DNA from: Hyphomonas sp.
Lineage (GTDB): Bacteria > Pseudomonadota > Alphaproteobacteria > Caulobacterales > Hyphomonadaceae
DNA length: 64,000 nucleotides
NCBI RefSeq assembly: GCF_965284475.1
Contig: NZ_OZ260087.1
Coordinates: forward strand, 2,645,646 to 2,709,645
Direction of reading: 5' to 3'
The position numbers were made by a program, and so were the translations under genes. The notes below the pieces were generated by a model. It did not search any database and was not told the origin of the DNA. It saw nothing but the letters and a program-made list of their open reading frames with translations. Shown here one piece after another: positions 16,687 to 64,000 of this stretch. Each line of letters begins with the position of its first letter. Position 1 is the stretch's first letter.

Positions 16687-16765
16687 GTGGCCTGTGCGCA
16701 AGGCGGAACATTGCCCGCTTGCGGCCATTGTTCTGTCAGGAAATCAAACAGACAGGAGACACGCC

Positions 16766-17595: not shown

Positions 17596-20500
17596 TCAGA
17601 TCGTGCCTTCTTCCCAATCCATTGCCTGTTCGACGGGTGCGGAGGCGGTATCAGTCGCGTCCAGGCTGTGTTCGAGCTTTGCCGCGACTTCCGTAATCGT
17701 GGTCCCGCTCAACAGGTCTCTCAAGCCGATGTCGACATGCAGCGCTGCCTTGATGGCATTCCGGACCTGAACGGCCATCAGGGAGTCAAAGCCAAGGTCT
17801 GACAGTGGCTTGTATGCGTCGATGGTCGACGCGCTGTACCCGAGCGCGCGTCCGACATGACCCCTGAGAAACGCCTCAATAAGCTCTGCTCGCTCGTCTG
17901 CTGGCGCGGAGAGGATGTCATGGTCAAGTGAGATGGTCGGCTCTTCCTGCGTTCGGGACTCCAGGCCGCTCAGCCCGAAGAGTGCGCGGACACGCGGCGT
18001 GCTCTGAGCTGCAAGCAGCTCTATATTCGCTTTCAGAACTGCCGCGTAGGGCATTTCCTGTCCGACCACCCGCTCCATCGCGTCCAGTCCCTCTTCAAGG
18101 TCTATCTGACCCAGGCCGATCCGCTCCCAGCGTTCCCTGACGGAATCGGACAGGCGCGCTGCCATTCCGACTTCACCCCAGGCACCCCAGCCAATGCTGG
18201 TGATAGGCCGTCCGGCAGCGCGCCCCCCTGCGGCAAGACTGTCGAGCCAGGCGTTCGCGCTGGCATAGTTTGCCTGTCCAGGCCCGCCGAACATGGCCGA
18301 GCTTGATGAGAAGGCCACGAACCAGTCAAGCGGGGAACGCCCGGACGCCTTCATCAGGTTTTGTGCGCCATCGATCTTGGGCCCGGCCACGGCGCGGAAC
18401 CTGTCACGGTCTTGTTCACCGATGGGGGCGTCATCAAGCACACCTGCGGCATGGATGATCCCTCGCAATGGCAAGTGTGTGGATACATGTTGCTTCCAGA
18501 GTTCAGCTACGGATTCCGGATCCCCGATGTCACATGCAATCGCGCGAACGATGCAATCGTGTTGCTGGGCCAGATTTGCGGCGGTTTCCTGGGCTTGGGC
18601 GCTATTGCCAGAGCGGCTGACCAGTGTGATTTCGCCTGCGCCCCGTTCGGCGAGCCGCTGTGCCACAGCCAGTCCCAGACCTGCAAGGCCACCGGTGACG
18701 ATATAGGATCCGTCAGAGCGGACAGTCATACGGTTTGTTGGCTCGGGATCAGGCACAATCACGACCTTGCCCATGTGACGCGCGTTGGCCATGAACCGAA
18801 ACGCATCCTTGGCCTTGGCCAGCGAGAAGGCCTGAACGGGCAGCGGTGCCAGCTCCCCTTCTGATATCGCGTCGAGAATACTCTGGAAGGACGTGCGAAC
18901 CTGCTTCGGATCGACGATGATCTGATCACCGAGGTCGACGATGTGATAGTTGACATGCGGCGCGCGTTCTGCGGCTTCCTGCGGCGTCCATATATTGTTC
19001 TTGCCAATTTCCATGAACGCGCCGCCGGGGCGGATCACACGCATGCCTGCGTATATCATGTCTCCGGACAGGGCGTTGATGACGATGTCGACCCCCTCAC
19101 CTCCGGTTGCCTTCTCGATGGCATCGCCGAAGCTGGCTGACCGCGAGTCAAAGGCATACTTTGCCCCTTCGCCCAGCACAAAAGCGCGCTTTTCGTCAGA
19201 CCCTGCTGTCGCAATGACTTCAGCGCCGGCATTCAAGGCCATGCGCATGGCCGCGAGACCGACACCACCGGCCGCAGCGTGAACGAGAACGCGCTGTCCG
19301 GGCTTGATACCTCCAGCCATCGAATAGCAGAGGGCCGCAGTCAGATAGGTGTTGGGAAGCGTCACGGCCTCCGCAAAAGTTATGCAATCAGGTTTCGCCA
19401 GGACGAACCTCTGGCTCACGGTGACATGGCTTGCGAGGCTGTCGCCAGCAAGCGCGACGACTGCATCGCCGGGCTTCAGTCCTGTAACATTTTCACCGAC
19501 GCGGGTAATAATGCCGGCACATTCACTTCCCAGTGCGCCGGCATCGCCCGGATACATTCCCAGTGCGTTCAGAACGTCGCGAAAGTTGAGGCCGGTTGCG
19601 CGCACGCCAATTTCGACTTCGTCCGGTTCTGGAGCGCTGCGCGGCTCCTCGACGAGATGCAGCCGATCAAGGTCGCCTCTTTCCATAATACGAATGACAC
19701 TGCGTTGGCCGCTGGAAAGTGGTGGCGCTGATGTGACCGGAGCAAGGCGCGCGGCAAAGAGATCGCCATTGCGCAGCGCCAGTTCAGGCGCTCTGTCTGC
19801 CAGGGCGAGGGCATCGAATACATCCTGCGGATCAGGTGCCCGGCCTGGATCAAGATCGAGTTGCAGAAGAGGCATCGTCGGGCATTCGGCATCAATCGTG
19901 CGGCCCAGTCCAGCAAGCGTGCCCATGGCAAGAACCGGCGAGTCGCCCGGCGCAACGGCTTTGGCACCGCTGGTGAGAATGCATAGGCCGCATCCGGGTT
20001 TCTCGGACTCAAGGATTTGCGCGGCAGACAAAAGGTCAGCGAAAAGTTCTTCTTCGCGCCCTTCCTGCGTGTCGGTGTCGGCCGAGAGAGACGCGCAGTA
20101 CACGACCCATGATGGTGTGGAAGTCCTGAGCGTTGCTGACAGGTCGCCGAGCGTCACCAGTTGTGCACCTTCAACATCGGCAAGTGATGTTGCGAACTCG
20201 GTATTGTCTGAAACGATCAACAGGTCCTTCGGAATGCTGGCTTCAGGCCGCGGGACATTTTCCCAAGACAATTCAAGCTCATGGAGTGACATCTTGCTCG
20301 CGCCAAGCATCTTGGAAAGCGATGCGGCAGAGACAGCGCGTGCACGAAGTCCTTCAAATTGGGCGATGGGTTCGCCTGTCTCGGTTTCCATTGCGAGGTC
20401 CGCGACGAGCTCAACCTTGTTCGAGCTTTCCTTGCGGAGTCTTGCCGTCACGACGACCCGCCGCGGAGCCGTTCTCTCCCAGCGTATACGGTCAATTCCA

Positions 20501-23500
20501 ATGGGCAGGTAAAGTTGATCGTCTCCATCGTCCGGAACAATCGCACTTACGGCGTGGAACAGATTGTCGACCAGCGCTGGATGGAAACGGTAGTTGGCCA
20601 TGTCTTCTTCGGCGTCGGGCAGCACGGCAAGGCCGACTGCGATGCCGTCGCCTTTCTGCAGCGCTTCAAGCCCGCGGAAAATGGGGCCGTAATTCAGCCC
20701 CAGGGATTCCAGCCGACTGTAGTGTGCCTGAATATCAAGCGTTTCCGGGCACTCACTCTTCGCCTGTGCAGCACTCGGCATGGAAAAGCCGCCCAGGTCT
20801 GGCTGACGCGTCAGCCTGGTGCGCACGAGCGTGCGCCATGGCATGGCGGCGTCGTCGGGCACTTCGCGAACAGTCAGGGAATAGCTGTTCTTGTCCGCAG
20901 GCTCCAACTCGGTATGAACCGTGCAGGATGAGTTTGCATATAGCTCGAGGGGCGCTTCGATTGAAAGATCGGAGAGGGTAACGCTTCCCTTGCCAAGAAT
21001 TGCCTCACCTGCAGCGAGCGCCATCTCGACATAGCCGGTCGCAGGAAAAATGACCCGCCCGAGGATCTTGTGATCCGCAAGGAAGGAAGGTGATTGGGCA
21101 TCAATTGTGGAGATAAACGCCTTGCGCGGCGGCGGGACTTGCTGGATTTCTCCCAGAATCGGATGGAAATGATTGGTGTCCGGGCGCTTGCTGGCAGGCT
21201 GATCGTCAAACCAATAGCGATCATACTGGAAAGGGTAAGTCGGCGCGGGCACGAGGTGTCCGCTGCGATGCCGGTAGACACCCTTCCAGTCAATTTTGGC
21301 GCCTGCTGCATACGCCTGTGCCAGCGCGTTGAGCGCCGTGGCGTTATCATCCTGGCCTCTGCGGAGGCTGGGAACAGTTTTCCACTTTGCTGCAGGACGG
21401 GCACGTGCCGTAAGCCCCAGCAGGGCGGGCTGTGGGCCGAGCTCGATCAGGATGTCGGCCCCGGCCTCTTCCAGCGCCGCTACGCAGTCGCCGAAACGAA
21501 CAGCATTCCGGGCGTGGGCGCGCCAATAGGCGGCGTCAGGTTGAGTGCCTGTCTGGAAAGCTGATCCAGTGAGGTTTGAGATCAGCGGGATGCGGGCAGG
21601 CCGATAGGTGACTTTCCCTGCGGCTTGTTCGAACGCGTCCAGCATGGGGTCCAGGAGCGGGGAGTGGAATGCATGGCTAACCGTCAGGCGGCGCGTCGTC
21701 ACGCCCTTGCTTTCCAGTTCCTTCAGCACTGCCTCCACGGCAGATTCAGTTCCGGAAATGACGGTTTCTTCCACGCCGTTGACACCAGCGATGGCGATCT
21801 CGGTTTCACGGCCACCGAGCATGGGTGAAACCTGATCCTCAGGTGCGAAAATGGCTGCCATGGCGCCACCAGCCGGAAGCTGTTGCATGAGGCGCCCGCG
21901 CTCTGCCACAAGTTGCAATGCGTCCTCGTGACTCATTACTCCAGCCAGGCAAGCTGCGACGTATTCTCCGATACTGTGACCGACAACCATGGAAGGTGTG
22001 ATGCCCCATGACCGCCACAGCTCTGCCATCGCGTACTGGACTGCGAATAGCGCAGGCTGTGTATAGGCCGTTTCCGATATCGGGCTTTCCGCACCCTCAC
22101 TGGGGTACAAGACATCCTGAAGCGGTAGTTCAAGCGCGTCTTTCAGAATAAGTGCGGACTGGTCGATCGACGCACGAAACACAGGCTCGGACTCATAAAG
22201 TCCGCGTGTCATGCCAGGGTATTGAGCACCCTGGCCGGTGCAAAGGAAAGCAACGCGCGGCGAGCTGCCGCCGCTGGTATGACCGATAGTCATTCCCGGG
22301 AGACTGTCACCCTTTGCCAGCGCCGCCAGCTTTTCGCGAAGGTCATTGCTGTCGGATACGACGAGAGCCGCACGATGCATGAGCTGTGACCGCCCGACGG
22401 CAAGTGTCCGTGCAAGATCGTTGAGCGCGGGTGCGCCATCTCTTGAGACAAAGTCACCATATCGCGCAGCGAGTTGCCGGAGCGCGCCCGGCGTTTCGGC
22501 AGATATCGGGATTATGCTGGTGCGATCACTCCCGGCGGGCGATCGTTTGTTTTGCGGGGCGTCGGACAGGATCGCGTGGACGTTTGTGCCGCTGAACCCG
22601 AATGCGCTGACCCCGGCGCGTCGGGGCGTATCACGTCTAGGCCAAGGGGTCGTTTCGGTCACAACTTCGAGCGGCAGATCATCCCAGTCTATTCCCGGGT
22701 TCGGGATATCAAAATGCAATTGCGGCAGAATGGATTCCGACCGGAAGCAGACTAGGACCTTGAGCAGCCCTGCAATGCCGGACGCCGCTTCTGCGTGGCC
22801 AAGGTTTGTCTTGATTGAGCCGATACGAAGCGGCTGAGAAGGGTCGCGTCCATTACACAGGACAGCCCCGAGAGCGCCAGCCTCGATAGGGTCTCCGATT
22901 GGCGTGCCAGTGCCGTGGGCCTCAATATAGTCGATGTCCAGGGGGCCGAGGTGCGCGCTTGCCAGAGCGGCCTTCAACATGCGCTCCTGCGCGGGACCAC
23001 TCGGGACAGTCATTCCGCTCGAGCGGCCATCCGAATTTGTTGCCGAACCGACGAGCAGTCCAAGTATCGGATTGCCGTCCTTCTCGGCATCGGACAGTCG
23101 CTTCAAGGCGATCATGGCGCAGCCCTCGCCGCGGGCAAAGCCGTTAGCTGACGCGTCAAATGTCTTGCAAGCGCCATCTGGTGAGAGCATTCCCCATCTT
23201 GAAAACATCGCCATAGCATCGGGCATGGCGATGACGGCCACGCCACCGGCCAGGGCCAGGTCGCTTTCGCCATTCCGAAGGCTTTGGCAGGCGAGGTGAA
23301 TGGCATTCAGTGATGACGAGCAGGCAGTATCGATGGCGGCGCTGGGCCCAAGGAAACCGTAAGTGAATGAGATGCGGCCAGGGGCTGCATTCATGGCGCC
23401 TCCGGTGGCCGAATAGACGTCGGATTGTTCCGCGCCATTGGACCACATCAGGCGCCCATATTCGGTCGTCGAGATGCCGACGAAGACGCCGGTTGCGCTT

Positions 23501-23928
23501 CCTTCAAGCTGATCCGGCGCGATGCCAGCTGTTTCCATCGCTTCGTGCGCCGTTTCCAGAAGCATTCGCTGCTGTGGATCCAGCGATTTTGCCTCCCGTG
23601 GAGAGATGCCGAAGAATTGCGGGTCGAACTGATCAATCCGGTCCAGAAATCCGCCCTTCTTGGTTACAATCTTGCCGGCTGCGTCACGGTCCGGCGAATA
23701 ATACGCCTCAGCGTCCCAGCGGTCGGCGGGGACGGTGCGGACCGCGTTCACCTTGCCGGAAAGCAGGGCCTGCAAATCGTCCAGGGAGCGGACCCCACCA
23801 GGATAGCGCAAGCCGCAGCCCACAATGGCAATTGGCTCAGACTTTGCACGCTTGGCGACATCAAGTTTTGACTGGAGGCGCTCAATTGCGACGAGGGCGT
23901 CTTTCAGCATATCCCGCGGTGTGGTCAT
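17596..23928 (-). CDS. Modular type I PKS 'F': KS-AT(malonyl)-DH-ER-KR(B)-ACP, with C-terminal DWEEGTI docking motif
   Basis: KS DTACSSS/HGTGT/NLGH; AT GHSIG and HAFH; DH DHKILGRVIFP; ER LNFRDVL and HAAAGGVG; KR VLDD and GQANYASAN; ACP GFDSL. The ATG at 23928 overlaps the upstream TGA. Confidence 0.92.
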   Translation of the reverse strand: MTTPRDMLKDALVAIERLQSKLDVAKRAKSEPIAIVGCGLRYPGGVRSLDDLQALLSGKVNAVRTVPADRWDAEAYYSPDRDAAGKIVTKKGGFLDRIDQFDPQFFGISPREAKSLDPQQRMLLETAHEAMETAGIAPDQLEGSATGVFVGISTTEYGRLMWSNGAEQSDVYSATGGAMNAAPGRISFTYGFLGPSAAIDTACSSSLNAIHLACQSLRNGESDLALAGGVAVIAMPDAMAMFSRWGMLSPDGACKTFDASANGFARGEGCAMIALKRLSDAEKDGNPILGLLVGSATNSDGRSSGMTVPSGPAQERMLKAALASAHLGPLDIDYIEAHGTGTPIGDPIEAGALGAVLCNGRDPSQPLRIGSIKTNLGHAEAASGIAGLLKVLVCFRSESILPQLHFDIPNPGIDWDDLPLEVVTETTPWPRRDTPRRAGVSAFGFSGTNVHAILSDAPQNKRSPAGSDRTSIIPISAETPGALRQLAARYGDFVSRDGAPALNDLARTLAVGRSQLMHRAALVVSDSNDLREKLAALAKGDSLPGMTIGHTSGGSSPRVAFLCTGQGAQYPGMTRGLYESEPVFRASIDQSALILKDALELPLQDVLYPSEGAESPISETAYTQPALFAVQYAMAELWRSWGITPSMVVGHSIGEYVAACLAGVMSHEDALQLVAERGRLMQQLPAGGAMAAIFAPEDQVSPMLGGRETEIAIAGVNGVEETVISGTESAVEAVLKELESKGVTTRRLTVSHAFHSPLLDPMLDAFEQAAGKVTYRPARIPLISNLTGSAFQTGTQPDAAYWRAHARNAVRFGDCVAALEEAGADILIELGPQPALLGLTARARPAAKWKTVPSLRRGQDDNATALNALAQAYAAGAKIDWKGVYRHRSGHLVPAPTYPFQYDRYWFDDQPASKRPDTNHFHPILGEIQQVPPPRKAFISTIDAQSPSFLADHKILGRVIFPATGYVEMALAAGEAILGKGSVTLSDLSIEAPLELYANSSCTVHTELEPADKNSYSLTVREVPDDAAMPWRTLVRTRLTRQPDLGGFSMPSAAQAKSECPETLDIQAHYSRLESLGLNYGPIFRGLEALQKGDGIAVGLAVLPDAEEDMANYRFHPALVDNLFHAVSAIVPDDGDDQLYLPIGIDRIRWERTAPRRVVVTARLRKESSNKVELVADLAMETETGEPIAQFEGLRARAVSAASLSKMLGASKMSLHELELSWENVPRPEASIPKDLLIVSDNTEFATSLADVEGAQLVTLGDLSATLRTSTPSWVVYCASLSADTDTQEGREEELFADLLSAAQILESEKPGCGLCILTSGAKAVAPGDSPVLAMGTLAGLGRTIDAECPTMPLLQLDLDPGRAPDPQDVFDALALADRAPELALRNGDLFAARLAPVTSAPPLSSGQRSVIRIMERGDLDRLHLVEEPRSAPEPDEVEIGVRATGLNFRDVLNALGMYPGDAGALGSECAGIITRVGENVTGLKPGDAVVALAGDSLASHVTVSQRFVLAKPDCITFAEAVTLPNTYLTAALCYSMAGGIKPGQRVLVHAAAGGVGLAAMRMALNAGAEVIATAGSDEKRAFVLGEGAKYAFDSRSASFGDAIEKATGGEGVDIVINALSGDMIYAGMRVIRPGGAFMEIGKNNIWTPQEAAERAPHVNYHIVDLGDQIIVDPKQVRTSFQSILDAISEGELAPLPVQAFSLAKAKDAFRFMANARHMGKVVIVPDPEPTNRMTVRSDGSYIVTGGLAGLGLAVAQRLAERGAGEITLVSRSGNSAQAQETAANLAQQHDCIVRAIACDIGDPESVAELWKQHVSTHLPLRGIIHAAGVLDDAPIGEQDRDRFRAVAGPKIDGAQNLMKASGRSPLDWFVAFSSSSAMFGGPGQANYASANAWLDSLAAGGRAAGRPITSIGWGAWGEVGMAARLSDSVRERWERIGLGQIDLEEGLDAMERVVGQEMPYAAVLKANIELLAAQSTPRVRALFGLSGLESRTQEEPTISLDHDILSAPADERAELIEAFLRGHVGRALGYSASTIDAYKPLSDLGFDSLMAVQVRNAIKAALHVDIGLRDLLSGTTITEVAAKLEHSLDATDTASAPVEQAMDWEEGTI

Positions 23929-24797
23929 GGATTTATTCTTTTCAGGTGTGCGTTCAGCGTAAAGATGAGTGGGGTGGCACATGCGATGCAAATGATCGCT
24001 AAAAGGACAATTCTGTTCGAATTATATCCTTCATTGTCTATAAGCCAGCCCGCCAGGAATGCCAGTGGAACCGGAGCAAGTAGAAGCGGCGCGGATGGCG
24101 CAATTGGTGCCAGGAAGGCGGCTCGGTCTAGCAGTAGCAGAGCCAGCAATCCCAACACGCCTGTCACCGCGAAATGAAGACTATGTCGCAATTCCAGTTC
24201 CACCCACATGCCCGGCATAAACGGTGCAAGAATGATCACAATACCTGCTGTGACATAGAACAAGTTCGTGCTTGTTTTTTCGCCGCGAAGAGCGCGCGAC
24301 AGAACAAGAAACAGGCTGAACGAGACGGGCATGCCCAGAATTGCGAGCCATACAAACCCGAACGGGATAATGTCTCCCTGAGCATAGATCGCCATTGCCG
24401 CAACACTACCCATAGTAGCAACCAGCCACGTCATGTGGTTTGCACGTTCTCCTAATAATATAGCCGAGAATAGAATCACCAGAATGGGAGTTCCCCAGAA
24501 GGCGGCATGAACGGCGTGCCCGTACCCTGCATTGGAGGCGAATGCCCAGGACACCGGCATCAACAGCAGGAACACCGCGCGAAGTATCTGTGTCACCGGC
24601 TTTTGGGTGCGGATAAGATCGCCACGTGACCTGAAGCCAGCGATCGCCACCCACATACACAGCAGTATCAGATAGTGCAGCCACACGACCTGAAACGGCG
24701 GGTACTGATTCAAAAGCGTGCCGACAATCGCTTCGGTCACGGTCCAAACGAGGACGAATCCCAGCATCAGGGAGATGGTACGATAAGAACCCGTCAT
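23925..24797 (-). CDS. EamA/DMT family transporter embedded in the PKS operon
   Basis: 290 aa with about 10 TM segments in two repeats (PFQVVWLHY; ILFSAILLGER). ATGA overlaps at both ends. Confidence 0.8.
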   Translation of the reverse strand: MTGSYRTISLMLGFVLVWTVTEAIVGTLLNQYPPFQVVWLHYLILLCMWVAIAGFRSRGDLIRTQKPVTQILRAVFLLLMPVSWAFASNAGYGHAVHAAFWGTPILVILFSAILLGERANHMTWLVATMGSVAAMAIYAQGDIIPFGFVWLAILGMPVSFSLFLVLSRALRGEKTSTNLFYVTAGIVIILAPFMPGMWVELELRHSLHFAVTGVLGLLALLLLDRAAFLAPIAPSAPLLLAPVPLAFLAGWLIDNEGYNSNRIVLLAIICIACATPLIFTLNAHLKRINP

Positions 24798-27700
24798 TCG
24801 AGTGAATCCAGTGTGGCCCGAAGGCGCGCCGCCAAGTCTTCCTCGCTTATGGAATCATAGTCGTCGACTGGTTGGGAAAGCTCTGTCTTGCCGGTCGTTT
24901 CCATTTTCGCTGGAGACGTCTGAATTCCAAAGCGTGAATCCAGGAAACCGGCCAGCGCATTTACATTCGGATAATTGAACGTCACCGTCGTGGGCAATTT
25001 CAGTCCGGTTCCCACCTCTAGCCGCCTGCGCAGCTCAACTGACATGAGGCTGTCCATACCCATTTCGAAGAGCCCCCGGTCAGGCGAGATGGCATCACCT
25101 GAGGCCTCACCCATAACGATGGCCGCCTCTGCGGCCACGAATTGGGCCAGAATGTCCCGGCGTGCCGACTCGTGAGCGTTTGCGAGCTTGTCCAGGAGAT
25201 CCTTCGCCGCGGACGAACTGTCATTGTTGGCTTGGGGGGCTTTAAGGCTGTCGGGCGCTGCTTGGTCGGCATGGCCGAGCTTTGAAAGCAGCGGTCGCGG
25301 ACGGCGGGTTTCATGTAGTGCCTTCAGGCGCCCCCAATCGATCGAGGCAACAAGCCGCTGGCCGGACTGCGGCGCGTTGATCAGGCCACCCAGCGCATCC
25401 AGTGCCGCCTCGGCATACATGGGCTGGAGGCCTTGCTCGCTATAAGTTCGCTGGATGTCATCGGATGCCAGTCGCATCGTGTCCCAGGTCCCCCACCCAA
25501 CGGAAAGCACATTCAGGCCGCCCGTGCCTGGATTCTGAGCGCTGGCGTCAAGAAATGCGTTTGCCGCCGCATAATGGGCAAAACCAGGCGCACCGAGCAC
25601 AGCTGTTGTGGATGAAAAAAGCGCCAGGAAGTCGGCCCCCCGTTTGGATAGCGTTGCCTCAAGCGCAAGCGTCCCTGCGATTTTCGGCCGCAGCATGGCG
25701 TCGACTTGTGACAGACTCAGATCCCCCATGGCGACAGCTTCGAGGTGAGCGGCTGCATGAATTGTGCCACGGAGCGGAGGGCCCGACAGGAGCAGATCAT
25801 TGAGGGCATCCTCAAGTGAGGCTTCGTCGGCAATGTCCACTTTTATCGCAACTGCATCAGCGCCAGCCTCGCGTATAGCGGTCATCGCAGGGCCATCGGG
25901 CTCTGGGTTCCGGCCGAGAAGCGCGACGCGGCCGGCGCCATGATCAGCCAGCCATTTCGCAACAATCGTACCGAGTCCTCCGAACCCGCCAGTGACGAGA
26001 TAAGTGCCGTTAGCGTCGAAACGCACAGTTTCTTCACTGATTGCGGGAACCTCACAAAGGCGTGGGACAAAACGTTGTCCGTTTCGCCATGCACATTGAT
26101 CCTCATCGTCACGCGTCACGATTGATTTGACGAGAGCGCTGGCCTGGGCGGTCAGTTGGTCTTCACTATCGAGATCGATCAAACCTCCCCAGCTTGACGG
26201 CGCCTCGAGCGCAGCTGTCCGGCCAAAGCCAAGCGCTGGGGCTTGCCATCTTGAATGGGCTGCAGGTTGAGATCCATCACAACAGTGAACACCTCTTGTG
26301 GCGACCCAGAGTCTGGAGCCGTCATGCTTTTCCGCAAGACGAAGCAGATGCCGCAGGGGTGCCATGAAGGCCGCCTCTTCCATTTCAGTGAAAGCTGACA
26401 TGTCTGGCGCAAAGCCCGGATTCGCAAGCGCGAGCGCGCCAAGATAGACAATGTCACAGGGTTCATCAGAGCTGATCTCTGCTTCCGGGTGCACAGCGAA
26501 GCCTCGCGCCTCAAAGGTATGAGTCACAGCTTCCTGGAACTCTCCAGCGTCCCCCACAATCGCAATATGACGTTTGCTTTCAGGCTTGCGCGCGGCAATC
26601 AGCATTTGCTGCGCGCCGGCCCTTCCAAGTCTGGCTTCACCGCCAACGCGGGCGATTTGATTCAAACCTGTCTGATGGAGCAGTTCGGACCAGGCCGCTG
26701 CGGATATCAGGGGGTAATCAGGGCGGAGTGACTTGTCGCTAAATCTCCACCATCCTGGCGTCATCCCGAATGTCAGGTCTACCCACCGCTCGGGAGCGAC
26801 GCCTTCCAGGAGCAGCAACTGACCGCCCGGGGAAAGCAGCGATTGAGCATGCAAAACGGCTTTGCACAGGTCCTCGGTTGCGTGGAGGACATTTGCGGCG
26901 ACCACAATATCGAATGATTCCAGCTCCTGGCCCTGTGAGGCCGGATCGCTCTCGATGTTCAAAATGTCGGTAGAAAACCCAGCGACGTGGCCGTAAGTCC
27001 TGGACGCATCGTCGAGGAAATGCGGAGACACGTCGGTGAAGACGTACTCTATCTGCCTGCCTTCGAAGGCCGCAAGTATTGATCCGGTACTACCGCCTGT
27101 GCCGCCTCCGATTTCGAGTATGCGAACGCGGTGGTCGTCCGGAACGGTCTGTATCACTTGCCGGAGCAGCTCGGCGATCGCGCCGTTGAACGTGCGGGCG
27201 AAGGGCGCCTCGATGTACAACTGGCGCGCTTCTTCGAGAGAGCCATCCGGGAAGAGAAGGCCCACTGCATTCTTCTCACCTTTCAGTACGTCTGCGAGCG
27301 CGACACCACACCGCCGAAGGATTGAAAGTTCTGCGCACTTGCTACCAAACTGCTCAACGGCGCGCTCATACAGGTCAGCTGCATCGTGCCGGGGCAGGGG
27401 ATAAATTGGCCAGAATTCGGTTCCGTCTGTAGAAAGAATATTCTCTTCTGCAAGAATCTGCAGCAGCCTGCTAAAGAGTTGGGTCTGGTCCGGAGCGACC
27501 GAAAGACGTTTCGCCTCTTCTGTCGCCATAAATCGTCGGCCAACGCTTTCGTCGAATCCGAGATCCCTAAACGCCTTGCTCACATAGGCGAGTGAAATGT
27601 GATCCAGCGCAGGCAACAGGTCATCATAACTGCCTAGACCATGCGCTGTGGCGAGATCAGTGAAAGCTGACTCAAGAGCGCTGTGCACGGATTCCGGCGA

Positions 27701-55353: not shown

Positions 55354-56832
55354 TTAAACGCGCCTCCCGCGTGGCCGCAAAATGCCTGTGATCCGACGTG
55401 CAATGGCGCGCAGGATGCGGGCAAATTCCATGTGGAGTGGGTGCTTGAGCAGGTAGAGGGAAGCAATCCAGCTCACACCTGCGACACCGACCGCCAGAAG
55501 GCCCTCCGCAAGGCCGACATTTGCGCTGCCACCAGAATAGTGAACGATTGCAAGCGGGCCGGCAACAGTCGCGGCGGTCGCAACCGCACTTCGGGAGAGT
55601 GCGCGTCCGATATCCAGCCATGTAAATCGTATCACATAAGCCTGCACGAACCAGGTCGACAGGACCACGTTGATCGCAACAATAGGCCATGTGGCCCACG
55701 CGACGGCATGGATTCCATACTGTGCGCTGATGACAATTGTCGGGAGTACGATACACGCCTGCAGGATCGCGAGCAGGAATGCACGTCGCACCGCACCCTG
55801 GGCAATCAGGATGGGATAGTTCAGTCCGGGGGGAAAATTCAGGAGCAGTCCACCTGCGATAATCTGCACTAGTGGAATGGTTTCGAGCCAGTCATTACCC
55901 AGGAACAGGCGGATCAGGGGGGCGGCAAGGACGATGATCAGGCCGAGGCAGGGCCAGATCAATCCGCTAATCCGCTCGACGGCAGCAAGGTAGTATTTCC
56001 TGAGGTCACTCTTTTCGCGGGCGGCCTCAGAGAAGGCCGGCAGGGCCGCAGCGCTGACGCCGGCCATGACGGTGCGTTCCGGAAACTGGGCGATCATTGA
56101 TGCGCGGTTCAACAGGCCGACCATGGCCGGCGGCATGAAATTGCCAACGGCCATAACGGAGAGGACTTCCGTTGCGCGCTGCACAATGCCGGTGCCGCCA
56201 CTGAACAGGCTGAATGACAGGACGTCTTTCCAGGCGCTGAACGATGGCCGGAAAATTTCGAAACTCGGGCGGAAGTAGAGCAGCAACAATGTGCCGACCA
56301 ACGCCGAAACAACCTGCGCGTATGCGAAACTCAGATAACTGGCGCCAGCGATGGCTGTGCCGATCAGGACCGCTGAATTGAAGACTGTCGATGCGATGTT
56401 GATTACAGCGAGCTTTCCAAATGCGAAGTCGCGCGCAAGCAGCGCATGTAGCGGGTAGACGATGGCACCCACCGCAAACGGAACAGCGCAAATCTTAAGA
56501 TAGAGATCCAGGCCCGGCGAATTGAGCAGGCGAGCCAGGGCCGGTGCTGACAGAACCATGCAGGGGAGGATGGCGAGGGTCAGGAAAAGATTCAGGGTAA
56601 ACGCAGCGCGCAGTTTCGCGAGCGTCAGCTCCTTTGCCTGGATAATGTAAGCTGACGAGCCCACGTCGCGTAATGTGTTTGCCATGAGCAGAACGGCTGC
56701 GCCCAGAACTGTAACGCCGAATTCTGCCGGATTGATCAGACGGGCAACAATTGCCGTTGTGACCAGCGTGATCGCTGTCGATACATACTTGTCAGCCGTG
56801 GCGACAATGACGGCAGTCCTGATTTTATCCAT
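55354..56832 (-). CDS. Wzx-type oligosaccharide flippase (PST family, MOP superfamily; 'polysaccharide biosynthesis protein')
   Basis: 492 aa with 12-14 TM segments. ARLINPAEFG, ALLARDFAFGKL, VGLLNRA, LPAFS and LFLGNDW match the PST flippase pattern. GGGGGAAG precedes the start. Confidence 0.85.
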   Translation of the reverse strand: MDKIRTAVIVATADKYVSTAITLVTTAIVARLINPAEFGVTVLGAAVLLMANTLRDVGSSAYIIQAKELTLAKLRAAFTLNLFLTLAILPCMVLSAPALARLLNSPGLDLYLKICAVPFAVGAIVYPLHALLARDFAFGKLAVINIASTVFNSAVLIGTAIAGASYLSFAYAQVVSALVGTLLLLYFRPSFEIFRPSFSAWKDVLSFSLFSGGTGIVQRATEVLSVMAVGNFMPPAMVGLLNRASMIAQFPERTVMAGVSAAALPAFSEAAREKSDLRKYYLAAVERISGLIWPCLGLIIVLAAPLIRLFLGNDWLETIPLVQIIAGGLLLNFPPGLNYPILIAQGAVRRAFLLAILQACIVLPTIVISAQYGIHAVAWATWPIVAINVVLSTWFVQAYVIRFTWLDIGRALSRSAVATAATVAGPLAIVHYSGGSANVGLAEGLLAVGVAGVSWIASLYLLKHPLHMEFARILRAIARRITGILRPRGRRV

Positions 56833-56927
56833 AAGACTTCCCCCGGCTGAGTGCGGATTCCGTTTCAGCGCCGGTCAGGACAAGGCACACCTGAACCATG
56901 CTGACAAGCAAAGGACGTGCCGCAGTG

Positions 56928-57758
56928 TCAGAGTATGTAGAAGTACTTGAAATCGTATGAACCATGCGGGGCTGCCACGGCGGCGCGGTAACCCTGAACC
57001 GGTGGCACGTCCCATAGGCCGTACGCATTGATGGCGTCAGCTGCGCCCCAGGCCCGCAGGACAGCAGCCGGCGCGTCAGGATCGACCCTGACTTCGAAAC
57101 AATTCAGTGGAATTTCAAGGCCTCGACCGTCGGCCTTGATCAGGGCCTCCTTGCGCGTCCAGCAGGCAAAGAAGCCATCCAGGCGCCGCATCTCATCAAG
57201 TGCTGAAAGTTCGACATATTCGCCAGGCGCGAATGTGTCCTGGGCGAGCCTCTCCATTCGGTCCAGCGTGCGGATTTCTTCAATGTCCACGCCGATACTG
57301 CCCTCTGTTGCCACCGCCAGAAGGCCCCAGCTGCCAGAGTGGGACAGATTGAAACTGAGTGGTCGCGCATGTTCTGGCGTCTGCAGGCGGGGTTTGTTGT
57401 TGGTGCCGATGGCGAAAGTCAGGTCTTTTGCCGCGCCGGCACCACAAGCGCTCAGGACGATCCGCATGGCGCCATGTGCGGCGATAAATCGTGAGCGGTG
57501 TTCTGCGAAATGGAAGCGCTCGGCGCGCTGACGCTCATCGGCGCTCAATACATCCATAAGTTGTTCCATCTCCAAGGGCGGTTCTGCCGTGTTGAATAAC
57601 CAGATATGCACGGAACCAGGCTCGGGCCGCCACGAAGGGTGCGTGCCGGACGTTTCAGTCGCTGATCTGGAAAGCTGGGAAATAGAAACGGTCTGGAAGG
57701 CCCGAGAACCTAGGTCAGAATGGGGGATTCGCCCGTTTCTGGGTACTTCTGCTGTCAC
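56928..57758 (-). CDS. Sfp-type 4'-phosphopantetheinyl transferase (start uncertain)
   Basis: LSADERQRAERF, NKPRL, FNLSHS, IGVDIE and FFACWTRKEALIKADGRGL. Confidence 0.92.
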   Translation of the reverse strand: MTAEVPRNGRIPHSDLGSRAFQTVSISQLSRSATETSGTHPSWRPEPGSVHIWLFNTAEPPLEMEQLMDVLSADERQRAERFHFAEHRSRFIAAHGAMRIVLSACGAGAAKDLTFAIGTNNKPRLQTPEHARPLSFNLSHSGSWGLLAVATEGSIGVDIEEIRTLDRMERLAQDTFAPGEYVELSALDEMRRLDGFFACWTRKEALIKADGRGLEIPLNCFEVRVDPDAPAAVLRAWGAADAINAYGLWDVPPVQGYRAAVAAPHGSYDFKYFYIL

Positions 57759-58011
57759 GAAATCGACTTTCGAAACGTTGACTCTTTCGGACGCAATGTG
57801 GCACAGCTCGGGACAGAGGGCGGTGCTTGGGGGAGCAGCGTTTTCGCATTCGAAAGCAACGCATCGTATTCGATACTGCAGCTGTCAGTGGTTGAAATAC
57901 GGGTGCTCACCTCCGGTTGTATCGCAAAGGGACTCGAATTGCATAAAGGCGAGGGGGCGCAACTTGAGATCATGTCGTTCCAGCTGAGTCGATTGCGATT
58001 GTTTAAGTAAC

Positions 58012-61000
58012 ATGGACGTCGCCCGATTTATAGAAGATCTTTCCAGGGTCGGCGTCACACTCTGGACGTCCGATGGCAAGATTCGCTTTCGCGGTCCCAA
58101 AGGCGCGCTTGGCGAAAAAGACAAGTTCACGATACGCGAAAACCATGCGGCAATCGTGGAAGTGCTTGCCAATTGGCAAGTTGTTCGCGACCTGCCACTT
58201 GCTGATGGCCAGCGATCCCTCTGGTTTGTTCACCGCCAGGCTCCGCTAAGCCCGACCTACAATTTCGGAACGGCCATACGGGTACGGGGCCCTGTTGAGC
58301 CAATGGCACTGAAGACGGCCTTCCAGAAGGTAGTGGAGCGCCATGCTGCCCTGCGTGCCAGCTTTCCGGTCGTGGCGAATAATCCCGTTCAGAGAATTCC
58401 GCACGATCAAAAGGTGCATCTGGACTATCACAGGATTGATGGCAGCGCCGATGCGGAGGTCATCGCGCATGTGCTGAGCGTGCACAGGCGCCCTTTCAAC
58501 CTGGCGACTGGTCCGGTTTCCCGATTGGCTTTGTTCCGGGTGGCACCAAACGATCATGTCATCCTTTTTGGAGCGCACCACATCGTATGTGACGCGACAG
58601 GGGGTGCGACAGCCTGCCATGATCTCAAACAATTCTACATCGAAGGGGTTGCAGGCAAGCCGGCTGAGCTGACGCCCCGGACTGCCGATTTCCCGGATTT
58701 TGTCGATTGGCAGCGATCAGTACTGTCAGGCCCTCAAGGCGAGGCGTTGCTGGCGCATTGGCAAGAGCGACTGAAGCCTCCGCTTCCTGTGCTTGCCCTT
58801 CCGACTGACAGGCCAAGGCCCGTCAACAGACAGTTCCGTGGTGACACCTTGCAGAGGGTTTTTTCATCTGAACAGATAGCGGCGCTCGATGCGCTGGCAA
58901 CGCGCACGCGCGCGACCCGATCTGCAATATTGATTGCACTTATGGCGGCAATGCTCGGGCGTGTTTGCGATCAGGATGATGTCGTGATCGGGACCCCCTT
59001 CTTCGGGCGCGCGGATGAGCGGTTCGAAACGACAGTCGGTCATTTTGCAAACCCGCTTCCTATCCGCCTCACCGTTTCGCCCGCATGTTCCTTCGATGAC
59101 CTGATTATTGAGGCACGCGAGCGGCTGCTCGACGCGCTCGACAATCAGGATATGCCGCTTCTGCGACTTGTAGATGCCCTCAATCCGCCCCGCGATTCCA
59201 CGCGGATGCCCTTTTTTGATGTTCTGTTCACGTTTCTTTTGTTCGATCATCTGACGGGCGGTTTGCAGTCAGAAAATGACGCTGAAACACGCGCCATTTT
59301 CCCGGTCGAGCCATTATTGTTTCCGCTAATGGAGGGTCAGTTTGACCTGTCCGTCCGGTTCGAGGAGATGAATAACGGTCTCACAATGAACTGGAGCTTT
59401 GATACCGATCTGTTCGACAAGTCGACAATCGAGACTTTCGTGAACATTTTTTCGGAACTGGTAACGGAATTTTCAAGGGATTCATCAATTCCTGTGCGGG
59501 CCTACAACGCGGCAAGACCCTTGCAAGGCATAAAGCCGGAACAGGGAGAGCCCGAAATGGAAGTGCATGCACTGTTTGGCAGACTGGCGGACAGGGGAGT
59601 CGCCTTGTCGCTTGATGGTGATCAGTTGCGCATCAAGGCTCCAAAAGGCGCAATCGGCACGTCATTACGCGACGAACTGGTCGCCATGAAACCGGCCATC
59701 GTGGACATGCTCAGGTCCGAAGCTACCGGCTTCCGGTCGCGTTCGCCCCAGAAGGCCAATCTTCCCCTGTCATATGCGCAGCAGAGACTCTGGTTTCTGA
59801 ACCGGCTTGATCCAACCAGTACCGCTTTCAATGTCGCGGCCGGCGCCTGGATGAGTGGTCCTCTCAATCCGAAACTGATCGCCGAAGCGTTCAGGCTCCT
59901 TGCGCAGCGCCACGACGCGTTGCGCATGCGGTTTACAGAGCGCGAGGGCAAGCCCGTTGCTGAAGCGGTCGACGACCTGATGCCCCATTTTGAGTATCTG
60001 GACGTCGAGCATGTCGCGTCGGAACTTCGCAGGCAGGAAGCTGAGCGCATTGTCGATGAGCGAATACGCCGGCCGTTTGATCTCGCGACCGGCCCCCTGT
60101 GCGGCTTTACGCTCATCCGTCTGTCAGAGGATCGGTACGCATCACTGCTGCTCGCCCATCACATTATTGTTGATGGGTGGTCGATGGCCGTCGCACACCG
60201 TGAGGTCGTCGAAATCTACGACGCACTCCTTGAGGGGCGCGAGCCGGGCCTGCCCGAGGTCAAGGCGCAGGCCACGGATCATGCCCGCCGTGAGCGCCGC
60301 ATGGCCGTGTCGCCTGAATGGGCAGAACACATTGATTTCTGGCGCGAAGAACTCAGTGGCGCACCTGCGGTCATTGAGCTGCCTACGGATCGCAGGCGTC
60401 CTGCCAACCAGACCTTCAATGGCGGAAGACTGACTGAGCGGTTCGATGCGAAACTGCTGGCGGACCTGAACGCCCTCGCGCGATCCGAGGGCGTCACACT
60501 GTTCATGCTGCTGATGGCCGGATGGGCGGCAACGCTTTATCGCTATAGCGGACAGACGGACATTGTCCTGGGCTCGCCACATGCCAATCGCAACCATGCC
60601 GATCAGGAGAGCATGGTCGGTTGCCTGATCAACAACATGGTCGTGCGCTGCCGTGTCGACGGGTCCTTGAGCTTTAGCGACCATCTTGCAAATGTCCGTA
60701 GCGCGACCCTCGGATCGCTTGAGCATAGCGAACTTCCGTTCGATCTGCTGGTCGACACCGTCAATCCGGAACGCAGCGCCAGCCACGCTCCGATATTCCA
60801 GACGCTTTTCAGCTTGATGACGTTCCCGAAGATCGAACATGGCTTCAAGGGCACCGAAGTTGAGCCGATGATCCCAGGAACGGGTGCCTCAAGGTATGAC
60901 TTGTCTCTGGACTGTGTGGAGTTCGGCGGCGAGCTCCTGACGCACTACGAGTTTGCGACGGACCTGTTTGACACCGACACGATTCTGAGATTGCATCGTC

Positions 61001-62985
61001 ATTACCAAACCCTGATGCGCGCGGCGATTGCCGATCCCTTGGCGCCCGTCAAATCATTGCAAATGCTGACGCGGGATGATGCGGCAGAAATTGCCAATTC
61101 GAACGCGCGGACAGTCAAAGAGTTTGATCGTAGCGCAACCACGCTGGATATGATCGAGTCTTGCGTCCGGGAGGTTCCGGACCAAGGGGCCGTAACCGAT
61201 GCGCACGGAACACTGAGCTATGCCGAACTCGACGTGCGCGCAAATCGCCTGGCGCACCTGCTGCACAACAACGGTGTGGGTCGCGGCAGTCTGGTCGCGG
61301 TAAGTCTCGAGCGCAGCGTGAATCTTCCAATGGCGCTTCTTGCGGTCTGGAAGGCCGGCGCGGCCTATCTGCCACTTGATCCGAAACACCCGCAGGAACG
61401 CATCAACAGCATTGTTGCCGATGCCGGTGTAGACTTGGTCCTGACAGAAACAGCCTCGGCAGCGCCGTTCGGCGACAACCAGCCAGTGCTGGCGCTCGAT
61501 CAGTTGGAAAGTCGCCTTGACGCGATGCCGCATACGGCACCGGACCGCGAGACAACGCCTGAAGATCTGGCCTATGTGATCTATACGTCAGGCTCCACCG
61601 GGCGCCCGAAAGGGGTTGAAGTCGAGCACCGCAATCTCGCGGCTTTCCTGGTCGCCATGCAGGAGGAACCTGGAATCCGTGAGGGACAAACGCTCCTCGC
61701 CGTGACAACCCCGTCGTTCGACATCTTTGGACTGGAAGCATGGCTACCACTTTCATCGAAGGCGCGTATGGTTATCGCATCGCGTGAAACGGCGCTGGAC
61801 GGGCGTGCTCTGGCCGACCTTATGGACTCAGAAAATGTCGACATTCTTCAGGCCACACCCGCGACATGGAATGTTCTGATCGAGACAGGCTGGCAGGGAC
61901 GTGGGGGCCTGAAGGCGCTTTGTGGCGGCGAAGCGCTGCCGCTGGCCCTGGCCGACGCACTTCTGCAGCGCGGCTGTGATCTCTGGAATATGTATGGCCC
62001 GACCGAGACGACGATCTGGTCTTCAGTGCAACATATCGAGAAGGCCGATGATGCTATCAGCATCGGCAAGCCCATCGCGAATACGCGCATGTATATCCTG
62101 GATGACCAAGGCGTGCCGGTACCGCCTGGTGCGATTGGCGAGCTTTGTATCGGCGGTGAAGGCGTCACGCGCGGATATCGCGGCCGGCAGGATCTCACGG
62201 ACGAACGCTACCTCTCGCTGGACCTTCCCGGTCACGACAAGGAACGCATTTACCGCACCGGAGATTTCGCGCGTGAAACAGTCGATGGCCGGCTGATTTT
62301 TCTCGGGCGTCGCGACTTTCAGGTCAAGATCCGTGGTTTTCGGATCGAACTCGGCGAGATCGAGAGTGAAATTGGCGCATTGGAGAGCGTTGCCGAGTGC
62401 GCCGTTATCGCCCACGAGCGTGCCAAAGGTGATCTCGAACTTGTCGCATACGTCGTGCCCGCAGCAGGCCGCACTGTTGAACCCGGGGCCTTGCGTGCGT
62501 CACTTCGGTCCCAGTTGCCGAACTATATGGTACCGGCGCATGTTGTTGTGCTCGACGCCCTGCCGCTAACGCCCAACCTGAAAGTTGACCGCAAAGCGCT
62601 GCCGCTGCCGCAAGTCAAGCAGGCATCGGATACGTCCGCTGGCAACGTCGTCATGTCACCTGCTGAGCAAAGCGTGGCCGAGATCTGGTGCGCGGTGCTT
62701 GGCCGGACCCAGGTCGGACTTGAAGATAACTTCTTTGATATTGGCGGGCATTCCATGCTGTTGGTTCGCTTGCACGAACGGCTCCGGAATGATCTTGGTG
62801 CGACGATGGCACTGATAGAACTTTTCCAGCGCACGACAGTCGCGCAGCAGGCTGCCGCCATTCCGGGCGGTGCGGGATCCGGGCTGGTGGGGTCCGCTTC
62901 TGCTACGCAGCCGGCTCAGCCCGTCCAGTCAGACCGCCTCACACGGGCAAAAAAACGAGCGGAGCGCATCCGGCATGGCCAGTAA
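58012..62985 (+). CDS. NRPS: betaHD(TubC_N)-C-betaHD(TubC_N)-C-A(Gly)-PCP
   Basis: Two beta-hairpin docking-like segments (LSRVGVTLWTSDGKIRFRGPKGA; LADRGVALSLDGDQLRIKAPKGA). C motifs HHIVCDA and HHIIVDG. A-domain YTSGSTGRPKG and NMYGPTETT, with hand-read code DILQLGMIWK. PCP FFDIGGHS. The C-terminal tail is basic. Confidence 0.92.
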   Translation: MDVARFIEDLSRVGVTLWTSDGKIRFRGPKGALGEKDKFTIRENHAAIVEVLANWQVVRDLPLADGQRSLWFVHRQAPLSPTYNFGTAIRVRGPVEPMALKTAFQKVVERHAALRASFPVVANNPVQRIPHDQKVHLDYHRIDGSADAEVIAHVLSVHRRPFNLATGPVSRLALFRVAPNDHVILFGAHHIVCDATGGATACHDLKQFYIEGVAGKPAELTPRTADFPDFVDWQRSVLSGPQGEALLAHWQERLKPPLPVLALPTDRPRPVNRQFRGDTLQRVFSSEQIAALDALATRTRATRSAILIALMAAMLGRVCDQDDVVIGTPFFGRADERFETTVGHFANPLPIRLTVSPACSFDDLIIEARERLLDALDNQDMPLLRLVDALNPPRDSTRMPFFDVLFTFLLFDHLTGGLQSENDAETRAIFPVEPLLFPLMEGQFDLSVRFEEMNNGLTMNWSFDTDLFDKSTIETFVNIFSELVTEFSRDSSIPVRAYNAARPLQGIKPEQGEPEMEVHALFGRLADRGVALSLDGDQLRIKAPKGAIGTSLRDELVAMKPAIVDMLRSEATGFRSRSPQKANLPLSYAQQRLWFLNRLDPTSTAFNVAAGAWMSGPLNPKLIAEAFRLLAQRHDALRMRFTEREGKPVAEAVDDLMPHFEYLDVEHVASELRRQEAERIVDERIRRPFDLATGPLCGFTLIRLSEDRYASLLLAHHIIVDGWSMAVAHREVVEIYDALLEGREPGLPEVKAQATDHARRERRMAVSPEWAEHIDFWREELSGAPAVIELPTDRRRPANQTFNGGRLTERFDAKLLADLNALARSEGVTLFMLLMAGWAATLYRYSGQTDIVLGSPHANRNHADQESMVGCLINNMVVRCRVDGSLSFSDHLANVRSATLGSLEHSELPFDLLVDTVNPERSASHAPIFQTLFSLMTFPKIEHGFKGTEVEPMIPGTGASRYDLSLDCVEFGGELLTHYEFATDLFDTDTILRLHRHYQTLMRAAIADPLAPVKSLQMLTRDDAAEIANSNARTVKEFDRSATTLDMIESCVREVPDQGAVTDAHGTLSYAELDVRANRLAHLLHNNGVGRGSLVAVSLERSVNLPMALLAVWKAGAAYLPLDPKHPQERINSIVADAGVDLVLTETASAAPFGDNQPVLALDQLESRLDAMPHTAPDRETTPEDLAYVIYTSGSTGRPKGVEVEHRNLAAFLVAMQEEPGIREGQTLLAVTTPSFDIFGLEAWLPLSSKARMVIASRETALDGRALADLMDSENVDILQATPATWNVLIETGWQGRGGLKALCGGEALPLALADALLQRGCDLWNMYGPTETTIWSSVQHIEKADDAISIGKPIANTRMYILDDQGVPVPPGAIGELCIGGEGVTRGYRGRQDLTDERYLSLDLPGHDKERIYRTGDFARETVDGRLIFLGRRDFQVKIRGFRIELGEIESEIGALESVAECAVIAHERAKGDLELVAYVVPAAGRTVEPGALRASLRSQLPNYMVPAHVVVLDALPLTPNLKVDRKALPLPQVKQASDTSAGNVVMSPAEQSVAEIWCAVLGRTQVGLEDNFFDIGGHSMLLVRLHERLRNDLGATMALIELFQRTTVAQQAAAIPGGAGSGLVGSASATQPAQPVQSDRLTRAKKRAERIRHGQ

Positions 62986-64000
62986 GGAAAATTCCCCTGC
63001 TCTGTCTCCCCATGCCATTGCAATTGTTGGCATGGCGGGAAGATTCCCCGATGCGCCGGACATCGACACGTTCTGGCGTAATATCCTTGCCGGGAAAGAA
63101 TCCCTGCGGACATTTGACACCGAAACACTTGAGAAGGCGGGTGTACCGCAGGCATTGCAGGATCACCCTGATTTCGTTCCCAAAGGCACGCCGCTTGATG
63201 AAGTCGATATGTTCGATGCGGAGTTCTTTGGCCTGTCGGCTGGCGAAGCCCGGATAATCGATCCGCAGCAACGCGTCTTTCTTGAATGTGCGTGGCAGGC
63301 CATGGAGCATGCAGGCTATGCGCCGGGCGAGCTTGAAGAACCGGTAGGCGTCTTTGCCGGCACTGGCATGAACACTTACCTGATGGCGCACATCCTGTCA
63401 GATCGTGCCGCGGTAGAGGCAGCCGGCGGTTATCAATTGATGCTCGGTAACGACAAGGACTTTCTTTGCACACGGGTTAGCTACAAACTGGACCTGCGCG
63501 GGCCAAGTGCCACTGTCCAGACGGCATGCTCAACATCTCTCGTCGCAGTTGAAATGGCCTGCAGGGCCTTGTCGCGCGGCGAATGTGACATGGCGCTCGC
63601 AGGCGGGGTCTCGATCGCCTTTCCCGACAAGGCGGGGTATCTCTACCAGGAAGGCATGATCTTCTCGCCCGATGGTCATTGCCGCCCGTTCGACATCGAC
63701 GCCAAGGGCACCCGGGCAGGTGCCGGAGCAGGTGTCGTAACCCTGAAGCGCCTTGCAGACGCAGAGCGGGATGGCGACACGATCCACGCAGTAATCCGCG
63801 GCATCGCTGTCAATAATGATGGGGCGGCCAAGGCGGGCTATACGGCCCCGTCAATTGACGGACAGGCCGAAGTCGTTGCGATGGCGCAGGCGCTCGCTGG
63901 CGTATCGCCGCGCTCAATCGGCTATCTGGAAGCTCACGGGACAGCAACACCGCTGGGTGACCCCATTGAGATTGCAGCCCTGACCCAGGTTTTCCGCGAA
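62975..64000 (+). CDS. Type I PKS, hybrid-type (post-NRPS) KS domain; truncated by the window edge and absent from the ORF track
   Basis: Translating by hand from ATG 62975 gives MASKENSPALSPHAIAIVGMAGRFPDAPDIDTFWRNILAGKESL...DPQQRVFLE...GNDKDFLCTRVSYKLDLRGP...VQTACSTSLVAV...[14 protein letters not shown]. It overlaps the NRPS 3' end by 11 bp. Confidence 0.92.
   Translation, partial: MASKENSPALSPHAIAIVGMAGRFPDAPDIDTFWRNILAGKESLRTFDTETLEKAGVPQALQDHPDFVPKGTPLDEVDMFDAEFFGLSAGEARIIDPQQRVFLECAWQAMEHAGYAPGELEEPVGVFAGTGMNTYLMAHILSDRAAVEAAGGYQLMLGNDKDFLCTRVSYKLDLRGPSATVQTACSTSLVAVEMACRALSRGECDMALAGGVSIAFPDKAGYLYQEGMIFSPDGHCRPFDIDAKGTRAGAGAGVVTLKRLADAERDGDTIHAVIRGIAVNNDGAAKAGYTAPSIDGQAEVVAMAQALAGVSPRSIGYLEAHGTATPLGDPIEIAALTQVFRE

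Follow-up and report, generated by a model that had tools for sequence, protein, structure and literature searches.

Split assembly lines of the tubulysin/epothilone type, in the style of myxobacteria and cyanobacteria, have one module per protein and embedded C-methyltransferases, are accompanied by an Sfp-type phosphopantetheinyl transferase (PPTase) and a type II, editing thioesterase (TEII), and carry TubC_N docks on their non-ribosomal peptide synthetase (NRPS) subunits which face short acidic C-terminal tails. The same features are found in a polyketide synthase (PKS)-NRPS cluster of a marine Hyphomonas sp., most of which lies in the window studied here, a stretch of 64,000 nucleotides (positions 2645646-2709645 of contig NZ_OZ260087.1; contig C1 of genome G000) from a single-contig genome of 3.43 Mb that is 99.99% complete. 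The assembly line itself is ordinary, a split cis-acyltransferase (cis-AT) PKS-NRPS with beta-hairpin docking. It differs from the tubulysin/epothilone type in having no loading module, cis thioesterase (TE) or reductase domain, with release apparently left to two free-standing proteins, a pseudo-hydrolase (ABH1) and a Cys-hydrolase (ABH2), and in having a fixed PST-family flippase, an alphaproteobacterial host and a place on a tRNA-linked island. What is unusual is the fixed flippase in a cluster without glycan genes, the Arg/Cys hydrolase pair that replaces the TE and the homology of this pair to proteins of exosortase-A systems. Our preferred reading, in which we have moderate confidence, is that the line on this tRNA-Val island makes an acyl-Gly-ketide-(small amino acid) lipopeptide, which would be released by the ABH pair and moved by a co-opted flippase.

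Several other described systems resemble parts of the locus. The PKSs tied to surface glycans (RkpA, WcbR, HglE and Mas/Pps) share reducing type I PKS chemistry and long aliphatic chains with it. Those PKSs are surrounded by glycosyltransferase or capsule-export genes or need them, or their products leave by MmpL/ABC export, whereas no such glycosyltransferase or export genes accompany the Hyphomonas line. The flippases WzxE, WzxC, TuaB and HfsF have the same PF13440/PF01943 membership and 14-helix MOP fold as the cluster flippase, but the latter belongs to a separate clade with no more than 30% identity to other PST proteins and without glycosyltransferase or polymerase partners. Finally, the TIGR03101/TIGR03100 pair of exosortase-A (XrtA) systems has the same order, hydrolase 2 followed by hydrolase 1, with Arg in the first protein and Cys plus DHT(F) in the second. 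In contrast with that pair, the ABH proteins score below the profile cut-offs, follow an NRPS peptidyl carrier protein and occur in a genome without an exosortase.

A conserved Roseobacter PKS/NRPS cluster (Martens et al., 2007) is described in PMC5014874 as widespread in roseobacters and as including a glycosyltransferase. Like the present cluster, it combines PKS and NRPS genes with a PPTase gene and is found in marine Rhodobacteraceae. We compared the two by description and rejected their identity, since there is no glycosyltransferase here and the gene for ABH1, used as a marker of the island, was found in none of 300 further Rhodobacteraceae genomes. A search of the literature for a characterised product, for Hyphomonas PKSs and for exosortase-associated hydrolases yielded no description of this cluster, in agreement with a preliminary description of the window, which had not recognised it as characterised.

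The assembly line and its predicted product

Genes were called from the open reading frame (ORF) listing and Pfam scans, and NCBIfam profiles were also used. Coordinates beyond 64000 are window-equivalent, i.e. the numbering of the window is continued. Six one-module PKSs are encoded on the minus strand, with domains abbreviated as ketosynthase (KS), AT, dehydratase (DH), C-methyltransferase (cMT), enoylreductase (ER), ketoreductase (KR) and acyl carrier protein (ACP). PKS A (49777-54327) is the first module and has the arrangement KS-AT-KR-ACP. PKS B (43334-49780; AT motif YAFH) is KS-AT-DH-ER-KR-ACP, PKS C (38976-43337; FAAH) is KS-AT-cMT-ACP without reductive domains, PKS D (31414-38979; HAFH) is KS-AT-DH-cMT-ER-KR-ACP and PKS E (24794-31417; FAAH) is KS-AT-DH-cMT-KR-ACP. 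PKS F (17596-23991; HAFH), identified like the others from Pfam matches and motifs, is KS-AT-DH-ER-KR-ACP. The AT domain of the first module has the unusual motifs GHSMGE and VASH, and FAAH replaces HAFH in PKS C and PKS E, two of the three modules bearing a cMT.

The start of PKS A overlaps the gene for the TEII (54324-55139, minus strand; Pfam Thioesterase, 144 bits) by 4 bases. Upstream of TEII on the same strand are the flippase gene (55354-56832) and the gene for an Sfp/HetI-type 4'-phosphopantetheinyl transferase (56928-57758; ACPS, 60 bits). An EamA/DMT transporter gene (23925-24797, minus strand), whose product scores 26.3 bits against a Pfam EamA cut-off of 28.2, sits between the genes for PKS E and PKS F.

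The plus-strand arm starts with NRPS1 (58012-62985), in which TubC_N docks and condensation (C), adenylation (A) and peptidyl carrier protein (PCP) domains are arranged as dock-C-dock-C-A-PCP. It is followed by PKS G (62870-67507, window-equivalent end; KS-AT-KR-ACP; AT motif HAFH), by NRPS2 (67504-70809, window-equivalent; TubC_N dock-C-A-PCP) and by the free-standing alpha/beta hydrolases ABH1 (70806-71594, 262 aa) and ABH2 (71582-72511, 309 aa), both in window-equivalent coordinates and on the plus strand. The longest ORF of PKS G uses a GTG at 62870 and shares 116 bases with the 3' end of NRPS1; translation probably begins instead at an in-frame ATG near 62975, about 35 codons downstream (MASKENS...).

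The Cys and the two His of the KS domains are retained throughout (DTACSS, HGTGT and N(I/L)GH), the GHSxGE motif of the AT domains and the HHxxxD motif of the C domains are intact and the Pfam matches are far above the cut-offs. With its domain sets, colinear order and dedicated PPTase, the system is a modular type I cis-AT PKS/NRPS hybrid. The inventory of the preliminary description (six one-module cis-AT PKSs, a Gly-NRPS, a further PKS, PPTase, TEII, flippase and EamA protein) is borne out gene by gene. It had also noted that the window holds no terminal TE or reductase; this is correct, and none is found in the continuation as far as ABH2.

The line runs from PKS A to PKS F, then to NRPS1, PKS G and NRPS2. 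This order is fixed by G046, a genome of a second Hyphomonadaceae genus, in which the cluster is one fully colinear operon, TEII-A-B-C-D-E-F-NRPS1-G-NRPS2-ABH1-ABH2-MOP (MOP being the flippase gene). There, the PKS A orthologue is the first PKS after TEII and the PKS F orthologue lies directly before NRPS1. The order is likewise consistent with the C-terminal tails, DWEEGTI in PKS F and REEFVI in PKS G, which face the TubC_N docks of NRPS1 and NRPS2. There is no loading module in the cluster and PKS A, whose KS begins at residue 19, lacks a docking helix at its N terminus, suggesting that it would be primed directly.

The codes of the A domains were extracted by alignment to a GrsA fragment, and the GrsA control gave the expected read-out, DAWTIAAICK. 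The Stachelhaus code of NRPS1 is DILQLGMIWK, a glycine code, and that of NRPS2 is DIIQIGGIYK, which is Gly-like. The extra N-terminal dock-C of NRPS1 (58012-59556), with the motif HHIVCDA, shares 30% identity with the second C domain and is restricted to Hyphomonas-type clusters, where the protein is 1655-1657 aa long; the form with a single dock-C (1142-1177 aa) is found in Rhodobacteraceae, G046 and Rhizobacter.

Six extensions would give a C12-plus chain with hydroxy, keto and ene groups and three methyl branches. NRPS1 would then add Gly, PKS G would add a reduced C2 unit by malonyl extension and ketoreduction to give a 4-amino-3-hydroxybutyryl unit, and NRPS2 would append a terminal small, Gly-like amino acid. 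The product predicted from the sequence is an amphiphilic lipopeptide, with a branched fatty-acyl chain amide-linked to the aminohydroxybutyryl unit and a small amino acid, and it would probably be anionic.

Release hydrolases, flippase and homologous clusters

Alignment of the hydrolases from seven clusters shows that ABH1 has an invariant Arg at the nucleophile position (G-L-R-x-G) and that ABH2 combines the sequence G-L-C-S-G with Asp in LDPS and His in CDHTF, both invariant, giving a Cys-Asp-His set. The best NCBIfam match of ABH1 is TIGR03101 (exosortase-A hydrolase 2; 100.7 bits, under the cut-off of 202.75) and the sole match of ABH2 is TIGR03100 (exosortase-A hydrolase 1; 104.5 bits, under the cut-off of 168.45). 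Five true XrtA-associated pairs, with scores over the cut-offs, match ABH1/ABH2 in gene order and in the positions of Arg and Cys. A search with TIGR02602 finds no exosortase in the Hyphomonas genome, so ABH1 and ABH2 are tied to XrtA systems by homology and not by function in this organism. In a sequence search of the PDB, ABH1 and ABH2 match generic esterases only.

There are 1766 homologues of ABH1 at E <= 1e-30, and all sampled contexts of the ABH1/ABH2 pair (L001:8451-10156, equivalent to 70806-72511 here) are the ends of TE-less PKS/NRPS lines, among them lines of different kinds. From these contexts and the conserved residues, we infer that the pair is a widespread module for off-loading carrier proteins, made up of a Cys-hydrolase and a pseudo-enzyme, with ABH1 probably the non-catalytic partner. 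The Cys of ABH2 would take the chain from the last PCP and release it by hydrolysis or transfer. We found no description of such an Arg/Cys release pair in the literature. A different ABH1/ABH2-terminated line, NRPS-PKS-NRPS, on a JGI metagenome contig (L064:11757-20787) adjoins a holdfast-like exopolysaccharide (EPS) locus, which contains a GT2 glycosyltransferase, a GNAT/FemAB-like protein, an HfsF-like PST flippase, two polysaccharide deacetylases and a Wzy_C/PEP_O_lig-like protein.

The flippase (492 aa; MOP) matches PF13440 (Polysacc_synt_3) over its full length at 168 bits (167.9, against a cut-off of 23) and PF01943 at 75.3 bits (cut-off 28.2). It is a genuine member of the PST (Wzx) family, although it falls under all NCBIfam equivalog cut-offs: PRK10459 (WzxC-like), 168 against 273; TuaB, 129 against 580; and O-glycosylation Wzx, 92 against 720. 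A PDB sequence search with the flippase gave no match. An AlphaFold2 model was built from 18 clade members (pLDDT 85.8) and compared by Foldseek, giving TM-scores of 0.71-0.75 with MurJ, target-normalised TM-scores of 0.77-0.81 with WzxE and about 0.5-0.6 with MATE proteins. The modelled fold is the 14-transmembrane-helix, MurJ/Wzx-like fold of the branch with lipid-linked substrates.

We searched for the flippase in 5.8 billion proteins and in about 185,000 species genomes. The protein search shows a tight clade at 46-85% identity and then a sharp drop to 30% or less, and a PKS-NRPS cluster surrounds every clade member whose neighbourhood was read. Outside the clade, the closest flippase (28% identity) is encoded in a classic exosortase-A EPS locus with XrtA-EpsI, an XrtA-associated decarboxylase, three GT2 proteins and a sulfotransferase. 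Because of its PST membership, its fold and this outgroup, the clade looks to have been co-opted from polysaccharide flippases. Two distant PST homologues (L043 and L044; 25-29% identity) adjoin ABC exporter genes, not glycosyltransferase genes.

Ten loci from the species genomes, together with the Hyphomonas genome of the window and G046, make up 12 alphaproteobacterial carriers of the cluster. The other ten are H. oceanitis, H. pacifica, two metagenome-assembled genomes (MAGs) labelled Alphaproteobacteria (which match two same-genus genomes of the Hyphomonadaceae sample), a Pseudomonadota MAG, Ruegeria spongiae, Oceaniovalibus sp., Allosediminivita pacifica, a Rhodobacterales MAG and a Roseovarius MAG. 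All 12 clusters keep the flippase, across three gene orders: divergent arms as in the window, an arrangement in which the PKS A-F arm lies beyond ABH2 while PPTase-MOP-TEII is still beside NRPS1, and the single operon of G046, where the flippase gene is directly 3' of ABH1-ABH2. The Allosediminivita and Roseovarius MAG clusters had seemed to be short forms without the six-PKS arm; this was rejected when more DNA showed the arm relocated to the other side. The Sfp/HetI-type PPTase and the TEII are likewise found in every cluster. In order to avoid circularity, MOP and ABH1 were queried separately across 151 Hyphomonadaceae genomes, and their orthologues are confined to the same five. Taken together, the 12 clusters, the three gene orders and this exact co-occurrence show that the flippase is a true member of the cluster, as the preliminary description had supposed.

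That description had also held that homologous clusters lacking the flippase would speak against a glycan role. One such line is found in a Rhizobacter MAG (Betaproteobacteria): TEII-A-B-C-D-E-EamA-EamA-F-NRPS-ABH1-ABH2 with a divergent PPTase, in which PKS A-F are 40-49% identical to those of Hyphomonas. This line is without NRPS1 and PKS G, and a genome-wide search of the MAG, which may be incomplete, gave no flippase match at E <= 1e-5. The EamA protein has orthologues in H. oceanitis, Oceaniovalibus, Allosediminivita and the Roseovarius MAG, and two in Rhizobacter; the parts of the clusters that were read in Ruegeria spongiae and G046 encode none. Transporter content therefore varies, with MOP only in Ruegeria spongiae and G046, MOP and EamA in most clusters, and two EamA proteins and no MOP in Rhizobacter, a pattern more in keeping with product exporters than with a glycan flippase.

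The tRNA-Val island and its neighbours

The left boundary of the island is a tRNA-Val(TAC) gene (17491-17566, plus strand; ARAGORN), the end of which is 29 bases from the stop codon of PKS F. In the congener G139, a 100% identical tRNA-Val lies about 3 kb from an RND pump gene, compared with 55 kb in the Hyphomonas genome of the window, and the site is empty. The cluster is present in three of 27 sampled congeners. Integrase or transposition genes adjoin the clusters in three other genomes, those of Allosediminivita pacifica, the Roseovarius MAG and the Rhizobacter MAG, which fits horizontal spread. The genes in question encode phage-type integrases, rve and TniQ/TniB proteins (L035:4068-5378; L005:13923-15651 and 18611-21452; L045:13796-14704). 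The genes flanking the cluster vary between genomes and include LysR, GGDEF and PfkB genes besides integrase and transposition genes. The cluster is an orphan, horizontally mobile island of about 55 kb inserted at tRNA-Val (positions 2663241-2718156 of the contig), found in Hyphomonadaceae and Rhodobacteraceae and with a relative in Burkholderiales.

To the right of ABH2 are genes for an RND pump, CorA, an amidase, superoxide dismutase and FtsJ. The pump (AcrB and a membrane-fusion protein) was considered as an export route and rejected, since all 28 congeners examined have an orthologue of it and few have the cluster; it is on a separate contig in G069 and flanks the empty site in G139. The left flank consists of housekeeping genes (biotin carboxylase, a GltX-like tRNA synthetase, NAD synthase, ParE and Lon). 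Between lon and tRNA-Val there is a gene for a 243-aa NAD(P)-binding, NmrA/SDR-like protein (16685-17416), which is missing from G139, a congener in which about 90 bp separate lon from the tRNA. The gene is a second, small insertion in the same place.

Substrate of the flippase

Beyond 64000 there are PKS G, NRPS2, ABH1 and ABH2 and then core-genome genes. The preliminary description had suggested looking there for glycosyltransferase, Wzy/Wzc/Wza and fatty acyl-AMP ligase (FAAL) genes, and none is present. There is no gene for a glycosyltransferase, priming transferase, Wzy, Wzc or Wza in the cluster or its flanks in the genomes read (G000, G001-G005 and G046), and no FAAL gene in or adjoining the clusters examined. 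The gene set of a Wzx/Wzy-dependent surface glycan pathway is absent from the locus. Because the clusters are without sugar-handling genes, the flippase most likely moves the lipid itself. From its conservation and fold we infer a role in moving the product: MOP would carry a lipid-like compound, and not a lipid-linked glycan, across the cytoplasmic membrane, and the EamA protein may act as a second, dispensable accessory exporter.

Several points weigh against this reading. The fold of the flippase is nearer to Wzx and MurJ than to the drug-exporting MATE branch, and we know of no PST-family protein with a proven non-glycan substrate. Relatives of the release hydrolases, and of the outgroup flippase closest to the clade, occur in exosortase-A EPS loci, which makes a glycan or envelope connection for the cluster conceivable. 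On the chemical side, the reductive and methyltransferase domains are presumed active from their presence. In the reading of the preliminary description, the line may supply a lipid anchor or an acyl decoration to an envelope glycan; the flippase would then move a lipid-linked oligosaccharide (which is afterwards acylated) or a glycosylated lipid. This reading draws on the same family membership and fold, on the tandem order and the Arg and Cys positions which the ABH pair shares with exosortase-A hydrolases 2 and 1, and on the XrtA EPS locus of the outgroup. The ABH-terminated line of L064 that abuts a holdfast-like EPS locus might be added, but we rejected this as support because the L064 flippase is unrelated to the MOP clade (BLASTP, nothing significant) and the adjacency may be due to chance. 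Moreover, no glycan genes are found in or beside the clusters in any of the three architectures, the essentially complete Hyphomonas genome has no exosortase and the homologous Rhizobacter line does without such a flippase. We therefore do not uphold an envelope-glycan role for the line and regard it as distinctly improbable.

A product that stays in the envelope is a less remote alternative, although we still think it unlikely. The product would be an unsecreted, aminolipid-like membrane lipid, taken by the flippase to the periplasmic leaflet and perhaps onward to the outer membrane. This is consistent with the Rhizobacter line, which literally consists of an acyl chain plus one amino acid, and with a transporter drawn from a family of lipid-linked-substrate flippases and not from drug pumps. 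However, a mobile island as rare as this one among its congeners is unlike a core membrane-lipid pathway, and the EamA-type exporters that accompany it in these clusters point to release from the cell. We consider it very improbable that the flippase gene, as a passenger or for self-protection, plays no part in handling the product. The Rhizobacter line manages without it, and gaps of 214 bp and 95 bp divide it from TEII and PPTase, respectively. However, neither gap holds a terminator-like site, the gene has survived three independent rearrangements, each time sharing its strand with biosynthetic genes, and it has diverged in step with them (35-85% identity for MOP and 44-70% for ABH1).

To our knowledge, the substrates of the PST/Wzx family are lipid-linked glycans only. 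If the flippase of this island does move the lipopeptide, as we prefer, its role would widen the substrate range of the family to a non-glycan lipid. We also know of no role assigned to the exosortase-A-associated hydrolases, and the PKS-NRPS context of the ABH pair offers a tractable route to their function. The XrtA hydrolase pair adjoins genes for an acyl-CoA ligase and an ACP, according to the TIGRFAM descriptions. Tentatively, and as a possibility we rate as rather low, the cluster family may make a custom envelope 'aminolipid', a polyketide-acylated amino acid or dipeptide which the ABH pair off-loads and the Wzx-like protein flips to the periplasmic leaflet, with both parts descended from the exosortase-A EPS toolkit. 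If this were true, one pathway for off-loading and flipping lipids would be common to the assembly lines described here and to the genes for ACP, ligase and hydrolases in XrtA systems.

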